DNA from: a virus
Virus genome (UHGV): UHGV-0007863
Direction: 5' to 3' (one strand)
DNA: 38,717 nt
Of this stretch, positions 3,458 to 37,145 are shown one piece after another. Within the stretch, counting starts at the first letter, position 1. Each line of letters starts with the position of its first letter. A program made the position numbers and the translations under genes. The notes beneath the pieces are model-generated. The model searched no databases and was not told the origin of the DNA. It was given only the letters and a program-made list of their open reading frames with translations.

Positions 3458-4339
3458 TTACATAGATGTTTCGTTTAATTCTTCCCGACGAACGCTGTAA
3501 ACGTCGGTGGCTTTTGCCAGCAGTTCGTCATCATCTGAAAGTTTTTGTGCAATGTATTTGTAAGCCTTATCCAGTTCGGAGACAGTGCTGTAATTCATCG
3601 CTGCGCTGGTAAAGGCCATCAGCATTTCTTCTGGATCACGGCTATCCGCTTTACGCGTTTGCTCATCAGGCTTTTTCGCTGGTTTAGCGTTGATCAGACT
3701 GTTCATTCCCGCAGCAGTGGTCGTTTGCGGAGTAATGTCTCGCTCAACGCGCGGTGCCGTTTCCTGTAATTCGTCAGGGGTGTAAACACCGAGAAGTACA
3801 TCAGGAGCGTGCAGGCGAGCCCATCGTTTCGTGCAAAGATAGGCAAGCTGCTGGCGCGGATCCTGTTCCCACAATGGAGAGTTACGCACTCCGGCTTGCG
3901 CCATACTGATGGTAAGCTCACGGGGTTCTGCTTCTCCTTTAAGAACTGCTGACACAGTTACCGTCAGATTCGGTGATTTATCTGTTTTGCCGTTAACATT
4001 CGACCAGTCACCGCTCCAGCGATAATTCAGGCGTGTCGCTAGCAGGCTGGAAGAGGATACGACCGCGTTTACCAACTGTGCTTCGTAGCCTAACGTTCCG
4101 TTTACCACATGCGTTTTCTGCGCCACGGCGAAAGGGTTCATTCCCCACTGTGCCGCCTGCATGGTCACCGCCAGACAATCGGCAGGTTTGCCTTCAAGAT
4201 GTTTCGGTACAGTCGCTTTGCTTTGTGACATCAACTCCGCGAAACGCACCAGTTGATTCATGCCCTCCGGGCTGAAGATTGCCGCAGCAGTACCTACAGT
4301 TGCGCCTGGTTGTGATGTGATTGCGATATCATTGCTCAT
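3458..4339 (-). CDS. Single-strand annealing protein, Bet/RecT superfamily
   Basis: 293 aa; segment AAQWGMNPF resembles the lambda Bet core (ANQYGLNPW); 4-nt overlap with the upstream exonuclease gene. Confidence 0.65.
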   Translation of the reverse strand: MSNDIAITSQPGATVGTAAAIFSPEGMNQLVRFAELMSQSKATVPKHLEGKPADCLAVTMQAAQWGMNPFAVAQKTHVVNGTLGYEAQLVNAVVSSSSLLATRLNYRWSGDWSNVNGKTDKSPNLTVTVSAVLKGEAEPRELTISMAQAGVRNSPLWEQDPRQQLAYLCTKRWARLHAPDVLLGVYTPDELQETAPRVERDITPQTTTAAGMNSLINAKPAKKPDEQTRKADSRDPEEMLMAFTSAAMNYSTVSELDKAYKYIAQKLSDDDELLAKATDVYSVRREELNETSM

Positions 4340-5157
4340 ACGTACATATCCTGTTTACGTGCCCAGTCAGGGCGTTTAATAATTTCCACTCCGCCCCATT
4401 CATCGTTGATGCGGCATTCGTGATAGGTATTCAGATCCCGGCGGAACAGAGCGTGCCCGGCATCGACATCTGGCGCATCCAGCTCGAACACGCGTACCGG
4501 ATACCGACCACAATCAATGCTTTCGCTCACGGCAAGAAAGAAAAAACCATGCGGCTGACCAGTAACCCTCATTGCGCCTTCGCGGTACATTGCGTCCTGC
4601 ACGTGGTAGCGGAATTCCTCGATGTGGCGTGCAAAACGGTCCATATCTGCAACCTTTTTCACGTCGACGATCACGTTGTGCTCGTTCAGCCATTTGTCTG
4701 GACGAATTCGGCACAACTCACCCGTCTCTTCATCGTTCCAGTACATTGATGCTTCGCAGTAACCAGGTGCTTCCAGCATCCAGCGTGCCGCCGGGTGAGC
4801 CATTGCGCTATCACGCATCAGCTCCAGTTTTCGCCACTGCTCGACATCAAGTACCGTAATACCCATATCCGCCACATCACGAAGAAATGCTTCTTCGTCA
4901 GCTTTACCTTGTTTTGTCCGACGATCGAACTTCGGTGAAACAATGAAGCGTTTGTCGAATTCTCCAGGCTCCAGAAGCAGACAGTGCAATGCGGTTCCCA
5001 TATCCAGTGCAGACTTTTTCTCTTCGTCTTCTGGTGCTGCCTGAACCCATTTCAGAAGGGCAGGGTTCTTAGCCACCATATCTAGCTGCGACTTACTCAC
5101 GCCGTCACCGGCGTGGTAGTCCTCGTTGCTGATATCGAAATAAATTCCCGGATTCAT
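4336..5157 (-). CDS. PD-(D/E)XK exonuclease, RecE C-terminal-domain-like partner of the annealing protein
   Basis: 273 aa; D-x-K signature (IVDVKKV) and synteny with the annealing-protein gene. Confidence 0.65.
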   Translation of the reverse strand: MNPGIYFDISNEDYHAGDGVSKSQLDMVAKNPALLKWVQAAPEDEEKKSALDMGTALHCLLLEPGEFDKRFIVSPKFDRRTKQGKADEEAFLRDVADMGITVLDVEQWRKLELMRDSAMAHPAARWMLEAPGYCEASMYWNDEETGELCRIRPDKWLNEHNVIVDVKKVADMDRFARHIEEFRYHVQDAMYREGAMRVTGQPHGFFFLAVSESIDCGRYPVRVFELDAPDVDAGHALFRRDLNTYHECRINDEWGGVEIIKRPDWARKQDMYV

Positions 5158-5453
5158 GCCGCGTCCCTCTGCCCATCAATCTGATCAGCCAGATCCCAGC
5201 GGGCGATAATTGCCATTGCCTCGCGCCGGTAGGCATCCATTAGTTCTTCGAACTCAGGGCTGTCTTTAGCGGCCTCCAGTACTTCCTGGCGAACGCCTTT
5301 AACTGTTACAACGTCAAAAGTTGATGCCAGTTGATGAAGCCGGATACTCTCAATCAGTTCAACTTGTCGGTCATATAGCTGTTCTGACAGGCGGTAGTCC
5401 TTGTCGAATGCCAGCATGATTTTTTGAAGATTTTTCTGCTGATTAACGTTCAT
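5154..5453 (-). CDS. Hypothetical early protein
   Basis: ORF track gives 5154-5468; the internal ATG at 5453 (MNVNQQ...) has a strong GGGAGGG Shine-Dalgarno 6 nt upstream, so the shorter start is preferred. Confidence 0.5.
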   Translation of the reverse strand: MNVNQQKNLQKIMLAFDKDYRLSEQLYDRQVELIESIRLHQLASTFDVVTVKGVRQEVLEAAKDSPEFEELMDAYRREAMAIIARWDLADQIDGQRDAA

Positions 5454-5455
5454 TA

Positions 5456-5608
5456 TCAGCCCTCCCATATCTCGTTATCGTTGGCCACATCGCGAGCTTC
5501 TTTGCTGACGAAAGCCCACTTAATGCCTTCCTGTAATGTGCGGAACTTCCAGCTCATGAATCCGCATGCAGTAACGCAGTACCAACCGTTGATGATTTTC
5601 CACTGCAT
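5456..5608 (-). CDS. Candidate small protein (50 aa, Trp-rich), first gene of the leftward early operon
   Basis: Hand-translated: MQWKIINGWYCVTACGFMSWKFRTLQEGIKWAFVSKEARDVANDNEIWEG; GAGGT 8 nt upstream of ATG; below the ORF-track size cut-off. Confidence 0.3.
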   Translation of the reverse strand: MQWKIINGWYCVTACGFMSWKFRTLQEGIKWAFVSKEARDVANDNEIWEG

Positions 5609-5627
5609 AACTTGTTACCTCGGTCTG

Positions 5628-5704
5628 TTACCGTTGAGGTAATAATTATGCGTATCTGGTTTGATGTCAATAGATATGAGTTAAAAAAATTACCCGTTAG
5701 GTAA
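5628..5704. promoter_or_regulatory. Two perfect TTACC-N5-GGTAA palindromes (5628-5642, 5690-5704); candidate leftward operator (OL-like)
   Basis: Read directly: TTACC-GTTGA-GGTAA and TTACC-CGTTA-GGTAA in the intergenic gap between the repressor terminator and the leftward operon. Confidence 0.6.
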
Positions 5705-5711
5705 TCAAATA

Positions 5712-5739
5712 GGCAATAAAAAAGCCGCCATGAGGCGGC
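5712..5739 (-). terminator. Rho-independent terminator after the repressor gene
   Basis: Hairpin GCCGCC-ATGA-GGCGGC followed on the minus strand by TTTTTTATT. Confidence 0.6.
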
Positions 5740-5761
5740 TTACTTACTGAAAAATATAGTT

Positions 5762-6346
5762 TTATTGTTTGCTTTTTTCGTTCTGGTTGATGACAAATTC
5801 AATGTAACTTTCGATCTTTGCTTTCTCGGTTTCGGGTAACAATGCGTAGCGTGAGCGGTCATAGTTGATAGTCGCAGGGTCGTGCGGGTGAATCAGTAGT
5901 TCATATCCGTGACGCCCGAATGCGGATGCAACATTCTCCAGGGTGGAAATGGAAACGCTGACCTCATTGTTTAACAGGCGGCTGATTGTCACCTGGGCGA
6001 CGCCGGATGCGCGGTGAAGTTTTCCCTGTGTTGAAAGGTCGCGGCTTTCGCTCATCCAGCGTTCCAGGTTGTGAGCCGCCAGCTGACCTATATCGCTCGG
6101 GCCGACAGGCTGAAAACCCTCCTGAGAAAGCGAACGATCAATATCAAGCCAGTTACGGGGTTTATTGGCGGCAGCTTCAATTTTTCGTGCAACCTGGTCG
6201 CCGATAACCTTCTTGCCAAGAGCCCAGCGGTTTACCAGATTTGCCTGAGTTCCAAGTTTTTCTGCCATCCGCGTCTGAACACCATTGAATTCACGGTCGA
6301 TCAAGTCGTTGAGATTTTGCCTGCGGACGTCCTGGATACTTTTCAT
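5762..6346 (-). CDS. Prophage repressor (CI-like) with two HTH-like segments and no recognisable S24 peptidase domain
   Basis: 194 aa; HTH-like segments GVQTRMAEKLGTQANLVNRW and SGVAQVTISRLLNNEVSVSISTLENVASAF; no Ser-Lys dyad domain seen; divergent from a cro-like gene. Confidence 0.7.
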   Translation of the reverse strand: MKSIQDVRRQNLNDLIDREFNGVQTRMAEKLGTQANLVNRWALGKKVIGDQVARKIEAAANKPRNWLDIDRSLSQEGFQPVGPSDIGQLAAHNLERWMSESRDLSTQGKLHRASGVAQVTISRLLNNEVSVSISTLENVASAFGRHGYELLIHPHDPATINYDRSRYALLPETEKAKIESYIEFVINQNEKSKQ

Positions 6347-6401: not shown

Positions 6402-6464
6402 TTACCCAACAGGTAAATGCACCTCATAGGTAACTATCCTTGATTTTTGTTACCTTATGGGTGA
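6402..6464. promoter_or_regulatory. Tripartite operator between repressor and cro-like genes: TTACC-CAACA-GGTAA (6402-6416), GCACC-TCATA-GGTAA (6419-6433), TTACC-TTATG-GGTGA (6450-6464)
   Basis: Three copies of the same dyad in the 154-bp divergent intergenic region, overlapping a -35-like TTGATT at 6440-6445. Confidence 0.65.
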
Positions 6465-6500: not shown

Positions 6501-6731
6501 ATGAGCGATAACGGACATTTCGATTTCAAAAAGCACTGGCTTGCACTTACTCCGGATGAGCGTGAAGCCTTCGCACAGGAAGCCGGAACGACGAGTCACT
6601 ATATCCAGACTCACTTAACAGGTAAGCGCAAAATGCCAGGTAAGGTATTGATGAATGGGCTTTTTAAAGCCTGTAAAACAAGACAATGGCTGCGCTCAAA
6701 AGCAGAACTGGCATACTTCTTCTACTCATGA
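6501..6731 (+). CDS. Cro-like HTH regulator
   Basis: 76 aa; divergent from the repressor across the operator cluster; HTH-like AQEAGTTSHYIQTHLTGKRKMP. Confidence 0.6.
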   Translation: MSDNGHFDFKKHWLALTPDEREAFAQEAGTTSHYIQTHLTGKRKMPGKVLMNGLFKACKTRQWLRSKAELAYFFYS

Positions 6732-6753
6732 TATCCAGCTACAACCCTCTGTA

Positions 6754-6778
6754 GACCGCCACCCGGCGGTCTTTTCAT
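6754..6778 (+). terminator. Rho-independent terminator downstream of cro-like gene
   Basis: GACCGCC-ACCC-GGCGGTC followed by TTTTC. Confidence 0.55.
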
Positions 6779-6786
6779 ATCTATTC

Positions 6787-6801
6787 GTACCTCAAAGGTA
6801 A
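6787..6801. promoter_or_regulatory. Near-perfect operator-like palindrome GTACC-TCAAA-GGTAA
   Basis: One mismatch to TTACC-N5-GGTAA; lies between the cro terminator and the next gene. Confidence 0.45.
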
Positions 6802-8651: not shown

Positions 8652-8688
8652 TACCAGCGCGATAGCGCATTTTTTTACGTCTCGATGA

Positions 8689-8765
8689 TTACCTTCTGGG
8701 TAATAAAATATTCTAAAATCTATTGATTTCGTGTCTTATGTGGTTTTTAATTACCTCTTGGGTAA
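8689..8765. promoter_or_regulatory. Two perfect TTACC-N5-GGTAA palindromes (8689-8703, 8751-8765) upstream of the nin-like block
   Basis: TTACC-TTCTG-GGTAA and TTACC-TCTTG-GGTAA; the second ends 3 nt before the ATG at 8769; preceded by a weak GC hairpin plus a 7-T run at 8657-8676. Confidence 0.6.
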
Positions 8766-8768
8766 ATC

Positions 8769-9113
8769 ATGAGAAAACAGATACAGGCTCTTGGTCGACT
8801 CAAAACAGGCCAGATGAACAAAACAGAATCTGCGTATTGCCAGCACCTTGAGCAGCGTAAACGTGCAGGGGAAATCGCCTGGTATCGATTCGAGGGTATC
8901 AAGCTGCGGTTAGCTGACAACACGTTCTATACGCCCGATTTTGCTGTGATGCTCGCCACCGGCGAGATGGAACTGCACGAAGTGAAAGGTTTCTGGACCG
9001 ACGACGCCAGGGTGAAAACCAAAGTCGCCGCAGATCAGTATCCGTTCCGAATCATCGGGGTAACGGTTAAACCAAAGAAAGCAGGTGGTGGCTGGAACAT
9101 CGAAGAGTTCTGA
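8769..9113 (+). CDS. DUF1064-like protein (nin-region family, possible nuclease fold)
   Basis: 114 aa; pattern KAGEI..W.FE...L.....YTPDF.V......E..EVKG matches recollection of the family. Confidence 0.5.
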   Translation: MRKQIQALGRLKTGQMNKTESAYCQHLEQRKRAGEIAWYRFEGIKLRLADNTFYTPDFAVMLATGEMELHEVKGFWTDDARVKTKVAADQYPFRIIGVTVKPKKAGGGWNIEEF

Positions 9114-13786: not shown

Positions 13787-13819
13787 TTACCACAACGGTA
13801 ACTATTACCACGGTGGTTA
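13787..13819. promoter_or_regulatory. Perfect TTACC-ACAAC-GGTAA (13787-13801) plus near copy TTACC-ACGGT-GGTTA (13805-13819) abutting the terminase small-subunit start
   Basis: Read directly; located between the terminator and the ATG at 13819. Confidence 0.6.
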
Positions 13820-16552: not shown

Positions 16553-16629
16553 TGGCGTGGCATGCAGGATTCGAACCTGCGACCAACCGCTTAGAAGGCG
16601 GTTGCTCTGTCCGACTGAGCTAATGCCAC
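16553..16629 (-). tRNA. tRNA-Arg (anticodon UCU), phage-encoded
   Basis: Manual cloverleaf: acceptor GTGGCAT/ATGCCAC, D-arm GCTC-AGTCGGACA-GAGC, anticodon arm ACCGC-CTTCTAA-GCGGT, T-arm GCAGG-TTCGAAT-CCTGC, discriminator G, encoded CCA; 77 nt. Confidence 0.85.
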
Positions 16630-16951: not shown

Positions 16952-16966
16952 TTACCTGAAGGGTAA
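16952..16966. promoter_or_regulatory. Perfect TTACC-TGAAG-GGTAA upstream of the portal operon
   Basis: Read directly; about 90 nt upstream of the ATG at 17057. Confidence 0.6.
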
Positions 16967-33893: not shown

Positions 33894-33908
33894 TTACCTG
33901 AAAGGTAA
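33894..33908. promoter_or_regulatory. Perfect TTACC-TGAAA-GGTAA upstream of the tail-fiber gene
   Basis: Read directly; a half-site GGTAA at 33955-33959 follows. Confidence 0.6.
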
Positions 33909-36740: not shown

Positions 36741-37145
36741 ATGTCAGCTCAACTAACCAGTGAAACTTTAAATCAGTGGCTTAGCATGAGTTCTCTGGCG
36801 GCGGTGATAGCAGGAGTTCCTCCTGAGGTTGCTTTGGGGGCTTTGGCTGGGGCGGTAATTTTTGTTACCTCTGCGGTAGAGTATCCTATTCGTCGTCGTG
36901 TACTCTTGTCGATGCTTAGCTTTCTCTGCGGCCTTCTTTTTTATAAACCAGCAGCATCAATTCTTATCGGCATAGCCAGCCTGATCCCTACCATCACGCA
37001 GGACTCTTTTGAAAAAGGGATTGTTTTCTCAGTTGGCGCATTCGTGTCAGCAATTGTTGCTGTGCGTATTGGTATATGGCTCTATCACCGTTCCGATAAT
37101 CCACGCGAGTTAATTCCGGGGAGAAAAGACGATGGTAACGCATGA
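36741..37145 (+). CDS. Putative holin
   Basis: ATG 36741 with GGTGG 5 nt upstream; ~134 aa with three to four hydrophobic helices and a charged C-terminus; first gene of the lysis cassette. Confidence 0.55.
   Translation: MSAQLTSETLNQWLSMSSLAAVIAGVPPEVALGALAGAVIFVTSAVEYPIRRRVLLSMLSFLCGLLFYKPAASILIGIASLIPTITQDSFEKGIVFSVGAFVSAIVAVRIGIWLYHRSDNPRELIPGRKDDGNA

Follow-up and report, generated by a model that had tools for sequence, protein, structure and literature searches.

A catalogued 50-codon gene under purifying selection leads the leftward early operon of an epsilon15-like phage

What is encoded by a short reading frame that stands directly behind the leftward early promoter of a phage, and is it a gene at all? 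The question is raised by a minus-strand ORF in the viral genome UHGV-0007863, whose entire sequence of 38,717 nucleotides is called the window throughout. Its 50-aa product (MQWKIINGWYCVTACGFMSWKFRTLQEGIKWAFVSKEARDVANDNEIWEG) starts with MQWKIINGWY and contains five tryptophans and two arginines (R23 and R39). The original prediction had described an unannotated Trp-rich ORF that carries a GAGGT Shine-Dalgarno sequence, begins 19 nt from an operator-like site, provides the ribosome-binding site (RBS) of the next gene from its last codons and occupies the first position after the leftward promoter. Coordinates, product and Trp content all matched the sequence. The Shine-Dalgarno motif, the GGGAGGG element and the operator-like palindrome TTACCTCAACGGTAA were each found as described (Table 1), and since a TTGACA-17-AATTAT promoter directly precedes the ORF, it represents the first cistron of the leftward operon in the window. 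The mRNA leader was estimated at ∼27 nt. In the relatives shown, the ATG was kept, and a purine-rich, Shine-Dalgarno-like stretch (GAGGT, AGAGGT, AAGAG, or AAGGA) was present at the equivalent spot.

Table 1. Positions of the 50-aa gene, its signals, and neighboring features in the window
Feature	Position	Strand	Remarks
Recombination module	3458..5157	-	Same operon; PD-(D/E)XK exonuclease (DUF3799, 4336..5157) and RecT (3458..4339)
99-aa gene (PhiV10p38, PHROG 856)	5154..5453	-	Starts 2 nt past the stop of the 50-aa gene
Antisense 72-aa ORF	5424..5642	+	Rejected as a gene
50-aa gene (PhiV10p39/epsilon15 gp37 family, PHROG 898)	5456..5608	-	ATG at 5608, TGA stop at 5458..5456; core, residues 1-38; C-terminal tail variable
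GGGAGGG, RBS of 99-aa gene	5460..5466	-	Within the last codons of the 50-aa gene; 6 nt to ATG at 5453
Shine-Dalgarno GAGGT	5617..5621	-	8 nt 5' of the ATG of the 50-aa gene
Promoter-proximal operator-like palindrome	5628..5642		19 nt from the ATG; borders the -10 hexamer and spans the expected transcription start
Sigma-70-type promoter (PL-like), TTGACA-17 nt-AATTAT	5642..5670	-	10/12 consensus matches; conserved in relatives
Promoter-distal operator-like palindrome	5690..5704		Upstream of -35; 62 bp from the proximal palindrome
Intrinsic terminator ending the repressor transcript	5722..5741	-	Directly upstream of the operator/promoter cassette; annotated in phiV10
Repressor, 194 aa, two HTH domains	5762..6346	-	Homologue of SPC32H Rep (PDB 5D50/5D4Z)
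Cro-like gene	6501..6731
Terminators within early regions	6753-6772; near 8655-8680
DUF1064 gene	ATG at 8769	+	3 nt after an operator-like site (region 8751-8771)
tRNA-Arg, anticodon TCT	16553-16629	-	Rfam 73 bits; ARAGORN
TTACC-N5-GGTAA sites	5628-5704, 6402-6464, 6787-6801, 8689-8765, 13787-13819, 16952-16966, 33894-33908, 36865-36879, 136-150

The description as unannotated did not survive comparison with public records. The region of the window was 96 to 97.5% identical to phiV10, TL-2011b, vB_EcoP_ZX5, and other Escherichia coli Uetakevirus phages (epsilon15-like podoviruses), and the product was 100% identical to the proteins of phiV10 and TL-2011b. The gene is annotated as PhiV10p39 in phiV10 (YP_512294.1, "similar to epsilon15p37"), as F365_gp09 in TL-2011b, as gp37 in epsilon15 (NP_848245), and also in RefSeq E. 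coli genomes; its apparent lack of annotation was therefore an artefact of the ORF-length cut-off applied at the first stage. Thus, the gene is already known as a member of a catalogued family (PHROG 898/PhiV10p39/epsilon15 gp37). Residues 1-50 matched positions 1-50 of the 50 in the PHROG 898 profile (E value of 1.9e-38; function unknown), and all 15 diverse members of the family matched it as well. Using tblastn, the gene was found in 36 phage records, in every annotated one as a "hypothetical protein," and the repressor, the 50-aa gene, and the 99-aa gene co-occurred in the very same 36 records. The position of the 50-aa gene between the other two was the same in phiV10 and TL-2011b. A 281-bp region containing the ORF, which is annotated there by PGAP, was present in 558 of 5,426 complete E. 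coli genomes (∼10%), and the exact protein has been recorded from at least 1000 contigs. Beyond this range, the family appears narrow: a close relative was present in only 6 of 185,579 species-representative genomes, and when 1.84 billion representative proteins were searched with a profile, 19 matches were obtained, all of them ∼50-aa family members except for a 1929-aa repeat protein, which was dismissed as a low-complexity artefact. In a word-indexed second search, 63 clusters were recovered, and every named one came from Enterobacterales.

A length of 50 codons by itself is not above chance, since 6 kb of the window contain 78 ORFs with a length of ≥30 aa; it is conservation that makes the gene real. 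Related loci were collected from viral contigs by a degenerate back-translation of residues 1 to 16, which imposes no constraint beyond codon 16. The 120 loci obtained, together with the window and two annotated phage loci, yielded a set of 123 sequences. Conservation of the frame in relatives had been proposed as a check of the ORF, and frame-disrupting differences as evidence against it. A frame of 49 to 53 codons was kept in 123/123 viral sequences, and among the protein clusters, disrupted versions were rare (∼19 of 737 distinct member sequences), with the lesion mostly in the last third of the gene. The 55 distinct DNA versions showed exclusively synonymous variation at codons 2, 6, 8, 13, 14, 16, 25, 27, 33, and 36. 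The pooled dN/dS was 0.23; it was 0.03 in codons 1 to 16, which lie within the search pattern, and 0.33 (pS, 0.48) in codons 17 to 49, which lie outside the pattern and are free of this ascertainment bias. For the five alternative frames, the best value was 0.52, and the others ranged from 1.06 to 1.70. The value of 0.52 belongs to the antisense frame that shares its wobble positions with the sense frame, i.e., that of the 72-aa ORF on the opposite strand. This frame had no stop across the 50-aa gene in any of the 55 versions; its openness in relatives is a by-product of the wobble positions shared with the real frame, and with a dN/dS worse than the 0.33 of the sense frame, the antisense ORF was discarded as a gene. 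These results showed that the 50-aa ORF is a genuine gene under strong purifying selection, and the claim of a real gene with its own RBS was borne out. In the literature searched, we encountered no experiments that demonstrate expression or a function for a member of this family.

Conservation was most pronounced at the N terminus. The first 16 residues were invariant across the aligned E. coli, Salmonella, Klebsiella, and Enterobacter relatives, and the invariant segment MQWKIINGWYCVTACG also occurred in independently found proteins. Synonymous diversity in codons 1 to 16 (pS, 0.41) was nevertheless similar to that in the remaining codons (0.48), indicating that the invariance is imposed at the protein level rather than by a hidden DNA or RNA element. 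Moreover, Rfam gave no match in the region of the 50-aa gene, and folding of the mRNA was no better than that of shuffled sequences (z = -0.41). An overlapping nucleic acid element was hence ruled out as the cause of the invariant N terminus.

The signals upstream of the gene are consistent with control by the adjacent repressor. The PL-like promoter, a strong one of the sigma-70 type, was the best of three promoter-like sites within 2.2 kb, and it is bracketed by the proximal palindrome and a second one, TTACCTAACGGGTAA. The repressor matched Rep of Salmonella phage SPC32H (PDB 5D50) with an E value of 3.5e-42. Rep is described as a tetramer that binds palindromic DNA and is taken apart by an antirepressor (PMC9638917), and in the close relative ZX5, free phage disappeared and lytic transcripts dropped by >99.9% when the repressor was overexpressed (PMC9782041). 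Together with the homology to Rep, these published observations make it reasonable to refer to the TTACC-N5-GGTAA sites as operators. By analogy, the two palindromes that bracket PL are likely binding sites of the adjacent SPC32H-type repressor. Allowing up to one mismatch, 13 such sites were counted in the window, compared to 0.66 expected. An arrangement of terminator, site, -35/-10 elements, site, and gene was found at three places, namely at PL, at 6402..6464 (the divergent repressor/Cro-like region), and in front of the gene at 8769. In two of these cassettes, PL and the promoter preceding the gene at 8769 (sites at 8689 and 8751), the sites were exactly 62 bp apart. Of the terminators within the early regions, the one near 8655-8680 was succeeded by a new operator-flanked promoter and the one at 6753-6772 by an operator-like site, so that the phage seems to restart transcription rather than to read through. 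The repeated cassettes thus suggest several putatively Rep-controlled early promoters rather than antitermination. As a side observation, the DUF1064 gene at the third cassette has no obvious Shine-Dalgarno sequence, and its leader may be very short or absent.

E. coli-type relatives shared the layout of the window. The Klebsiella-, Salmonella-, and Serratia-type relatives had their promoter and its two operators 130 to 220 nt upstream of the 50-aa gene, with an intervening leader that contained a hairpin and sometimes an extra gene of 60 to 70 aa. Irrespective of what is inserted, the 50-aa gene keeps an operator-like site at its 5' end: in nearly every lineage, such a site preceded the ATG by 13 to 19 nt, and the operator half-sites were conserved across lineages. 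In the Klebsiella, Salmonella, and Serratia types (L005, L008, L019, and L123 to L126; region 80 to 220 nt upstream of the small gene), an additional operator-like site was seen 13 to 17 nt before the ATG; the one of the Klebsiella type has a 4-nt instead of a 5-nt spacer. This additional site may serve as a roadblock operator or mark a recombination boundary. In L124, the 26-nt string GGTTTCTCACGCCACCAATAATTACC was present after the repressor gene and again before the small gene, which makes the insertions look like duplicated terminator-operator units. The Serratia-type locus L126 also encodes a homologue of the DNA polymerase III theta subunit (4211-4477; 88 aa), which follows the repressor gene with a 4-nt overlap and, being located upstream of the leftward promoter, resembles a moron in its position.

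On the downstream side, the stop of the 50-aa gene always overlapped or nearly touched the next start. The 2-nt gap in the window and the ATGA or GTGA overlaps in relatives show that the gene is coupled in translation to its downstream neighbor, whichever that is. This was the 99-aa gene directly, a 348-aa gene succeeded by the 99-aa gene, or, in one distant locus, a gene for a 550-aa RecE-like protein. The last codons varied with the neighbor (...EIWEG, ...EIWEEVSK, ...GIWG, or ...MGVSK). Judged from these alignments, residues 1 to 38 are the conserved unit of the protein, and the tail is apparently shaped by the translation-initiation signals of the neighboring gene. Among 81 loci with enough flanking DNA, all of which stem from a single phage clade so that co-occurrence is phylogenetically confounded, the repressor upstream and the Cro-like gene were each present in 81 and the 99-aa gene in 80. 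The recombination genes were more variable: 63 loci contained the DUF3799 exonuclease with the RecT type of the window, 17 a YqaJ-like exonuclease with a different RecT-like protein, and 1 the 550-aa RecE-like protein with RecT. In the 17 loci (L100, L133, L047, and 14 more), the YqaJ-like exonuclease (299 aa) and the RecT-like protein (340 aa) replaced DUF3799/RecT, while the small gene and the 99-aa gene were unchanged. The YqaJ-type module was also found with an identical 50-aa protein. Exonuclease and annealase are encoded by separate genes in the window and in TL-2011b (273 and 293 aa; 4-nt overlap), and the phiV10 record lists one 1761-nt RecE-RecT fusion CDS (L001, 1298-3058).

With respect to sequence divergence, the 50-aa protein was the most conserved of the early-left products compared in epsilon15/phiV10-type phages. 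Identity between the window and epsilon15 was 79% for the 50-aa protein, 51% for the 99-aa protein, and 43% for the repressor.

The 50-residue product was predicted to fold into a soluble mini-domain in which three antiparallel strands precede a single helix. When given a diverse alignment, AlphaFold2 placed strands at residues 2-6, 9-14, and 18-22 and a helix at residues 25-49 (pLDDT, 75.4); a helical hairpin modeled from a shallow alignment was discarded (pLDDT, 55). Foldseek detected no significant structural neighbor of the model in PDB (best E value, 3.1) or BFVD (best E value, 0.35). The nearest, weak BFVD entries were small uncharacterized phage proteins, HNH-endonuclease fragments, an integrase core-binding fragment, and one DUF2188 protein. 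AP2 and integrase arm-binding domains consist of three strands followed by a helix, and the predicted order of elements in the 50-aa protein is equal (pLDDT, 75), but Foldseek found no such structure at an E value of <0.3; this is a resemblance and not membership. An apparent homology to the arm-binding domain of lambda Int (NNGYYCY versus INGWYCV) was rejected at an hhalign probability of 9.7%, and hhalign against the N terminus of the integrase encoded in the window gave 1.6%. Scans of Pfam, NCBIfam, PADLOC, and PDB sequences yielded no match to the protein, and weak matches to DUF2985 and mucolipin were based on the NGWY string only and were dropped. No transmembrane segment was detected, the highest 19-residue Kyte-Doolittle mean being 0.57. 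A lipobox-like motif (V-T-A-C15) and a CxxxC motif were likewise considered. Cysteine 15 is replaced by serine in several distant members and absent from another, and the two cysteines of CxxxC are lost in distant members; since the cysteines are unconserved there, both a lipoprotein and a zinc- or disulfide-stabilized protein were rejected. The pI of the whole protein ranged from 5.5 to 9.4 across lineages, and the net charge of residues 1 to 38, as counted from the sequences, was positive in the window, Klebsiella, and Salmonella forms.

The original prediction had further compared the locus to lambdoid phages, in which small regulators such as N, Kil, or CIII would occupy this position. The phage belongs to the epsilon15-like podoviruses, has a Rep/antirepressor switch, and is not lambdoid in the strict sense. 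The positional part of the comparison held for the 50-aa gene, which is first after its leftward promoter, but in lambda only N is first, and Kil and CIII are encoded several genes downstream. Kinship to any of these proteins was not borne out: with all filters off, the family profile scored between -1.7 and +0.3 bits against lambda N, Kil, CIII, Ral, Gam, Ea10, and others, i.e., about 0 bits against each, including 0.3 bits for Kil and -1.4 bits for CIII. CIII functions as an amphipathic helix, whereas the N-terminal half of the 50-aa protein is predicted to form a sheet. The similar MQ-aromatic starts of the two proteins (MQY.I.GW and MQWKIINGW) are a resemblance that the profile does not pick up, and homology to CIII was abandoned. 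The analogy to N, Kil, and CIII is therefore positional only. A broader likeness exists to lambda Kil, CIII, and Gam (47 to 138 aa) and to P22 Arf, all of them small proteins from a repressor-controlled leftward operon upstream of recombination genes, although the lambda genes are not the first of their operon as the 50-aa gene is. Kil, CIII, Gam, and Arf act through binding host proteins; Kil inhibits FtsZ, so that its expression leads to filamentation, and CIII inhibits FtsH by means of its central helix.

Taken together, we read the locus as a catalogued, real gene, the first in an early-left operon under probable Rep control, whose product would act as a trans-acting binder of a conserved partner. 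We regard this complete account as evenly poised between right and wrong, and its central element, binding in trans to a partner conserved in enterobacterial hosts, is put forward with modest confidence. The gene would be silent in the lysogen, and its protein would be the first product made once Rep is removed. It would then bind a partner (most probably a host protein) that is conserved across the Enterobacterales, in the manner of lambda Kil, CIII, or Gam, to none of which it is homologous, and it would be neither an N-type antiterminator nor a subunit of the phage recombinase. This reading is favored because the protein evolves much more slowly than the neighboring phage proteins (79% versus 43 to 51%), because exchange of the recombinase module leaves it unaltered, and because hallmarks of antiterminators and membrane proteins are absent. 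Binding to conserved DNA could explain the high conservation equally well, given that the operator half-sites are conserved too. In a bolder version, which we consider doubtful, the protein would be a new kind of early phage effector with no known relative: a sheet-plus-helix mini-protein that may switch off a conserved host function (for instance, a nuclease, a protease, or a protein of cell division) or exert feedback on the Rep/antirepressor switch. Searches of Pfam, NCBIfam, PADLOC, PHROG, and PDB and the profile searches yielded no homologue of known function.

A Gam/Arf-like link to recombination and sheet-mediated DNA binding are live alternatives. P22 and lambda carry small accessory recombination genes, and like P22 Arf or lambda Gam, the 50-aa protein might protect DNA ends or block a host nuclease; this possibility has a low but real probability. 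It agrees with the presence of an annealase downstream in the operon in 81/81 loci, whichever of the three exonuclease types accompanies it, and with the near-constant 99-aa gene, which directly precedes the exonuclease. Yet the same protein goes along with non-homologous exonucleases, which makes a direct subunit role unlikely. The repressor and the Cro-like gene track the 50-aa gene equally perfectly, the 348-aa gene intervenes before the module in 24/81 loci, and the family profile scored ∼0 bits against Gam. Somewhat less probable is a small DNA-binding regulator that would employ its three-stranded sheet at the operators or at other points of the lysis-lysogeny circuit. The predicted strand-strand-strand-helix order fits the AP2/arm-binding topology, the weak BFVD neighbors include nuclease and integrase fragments and the DUF2188 protein, an operator-like site adjoins the gene in nearly all lineages, and the first 38 residues carry a net positive charge in the forms named above. 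These points have to be weighed against the insignificant Foldseek and hhalign scores, a pI that shifts from acidic to basic between lineages, and the presence of a separate Cro-like gene.

Two further readings are unlikely. That the protein is an N-like antiterminator or another RNA-binding regulator, as its N-like first position and the terminators inside the early regions might suggest, appears highly improbable, because only 2 of its 50 residues are arginine, an arginine-rich motif is missing, and the profile scored -1.5 bits against lambda N. A nut site (boxA/boxB) was not found in the ∼27-nt leader, in which the sole palindrome is the operator, split by the expected transcription start. 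Neither the Rfam scan nor the folding analysis gave any sign of a structured RNA, and relatives carry a terminator-like hairpin ahead of the gene itself. In contrast to the lambda N system, the operon layout appears to be built on repeated repressor-controlled promoters, with early terminators that are seemingly followed by restart instead of read-through. Least probable of all is a leader ORF of which only the act of translation matters, either for coupling or for protection from Rho, and whose peptide is without function. The close stop-start spacing and the RBS of the next gene within the last codons would suit such a role. Against it speak the constraint on the amino acid sequence (dN/dS of 0.03 in the codons of the search pattern and 0.33 in the rest), the invariance of the first 16 residues in independently found proteins despite free synonymous change, and the folded domain predicted for the peptide.

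As a discovery, the ORF carries little weight, because gene callers already find it and public databases list it as a "hypothetical protein." It is of modest interest as the best-conserved gene of the early-left operon in a common prophage type, present in ∼10% of complete E. coli genomes, and in a phage group that includes reporter phages (phiV10) and the model of the Rep/Ant switch (SPC32H). Its size of 50 residues makes the protein an easy target for deletion, expression, and NMR, and if it were a host-directed inhibitor, a new family of small effectors would be added. Elsewhere in the window, the phage also carries a tRNA-Arg gene of its own (Table 1).
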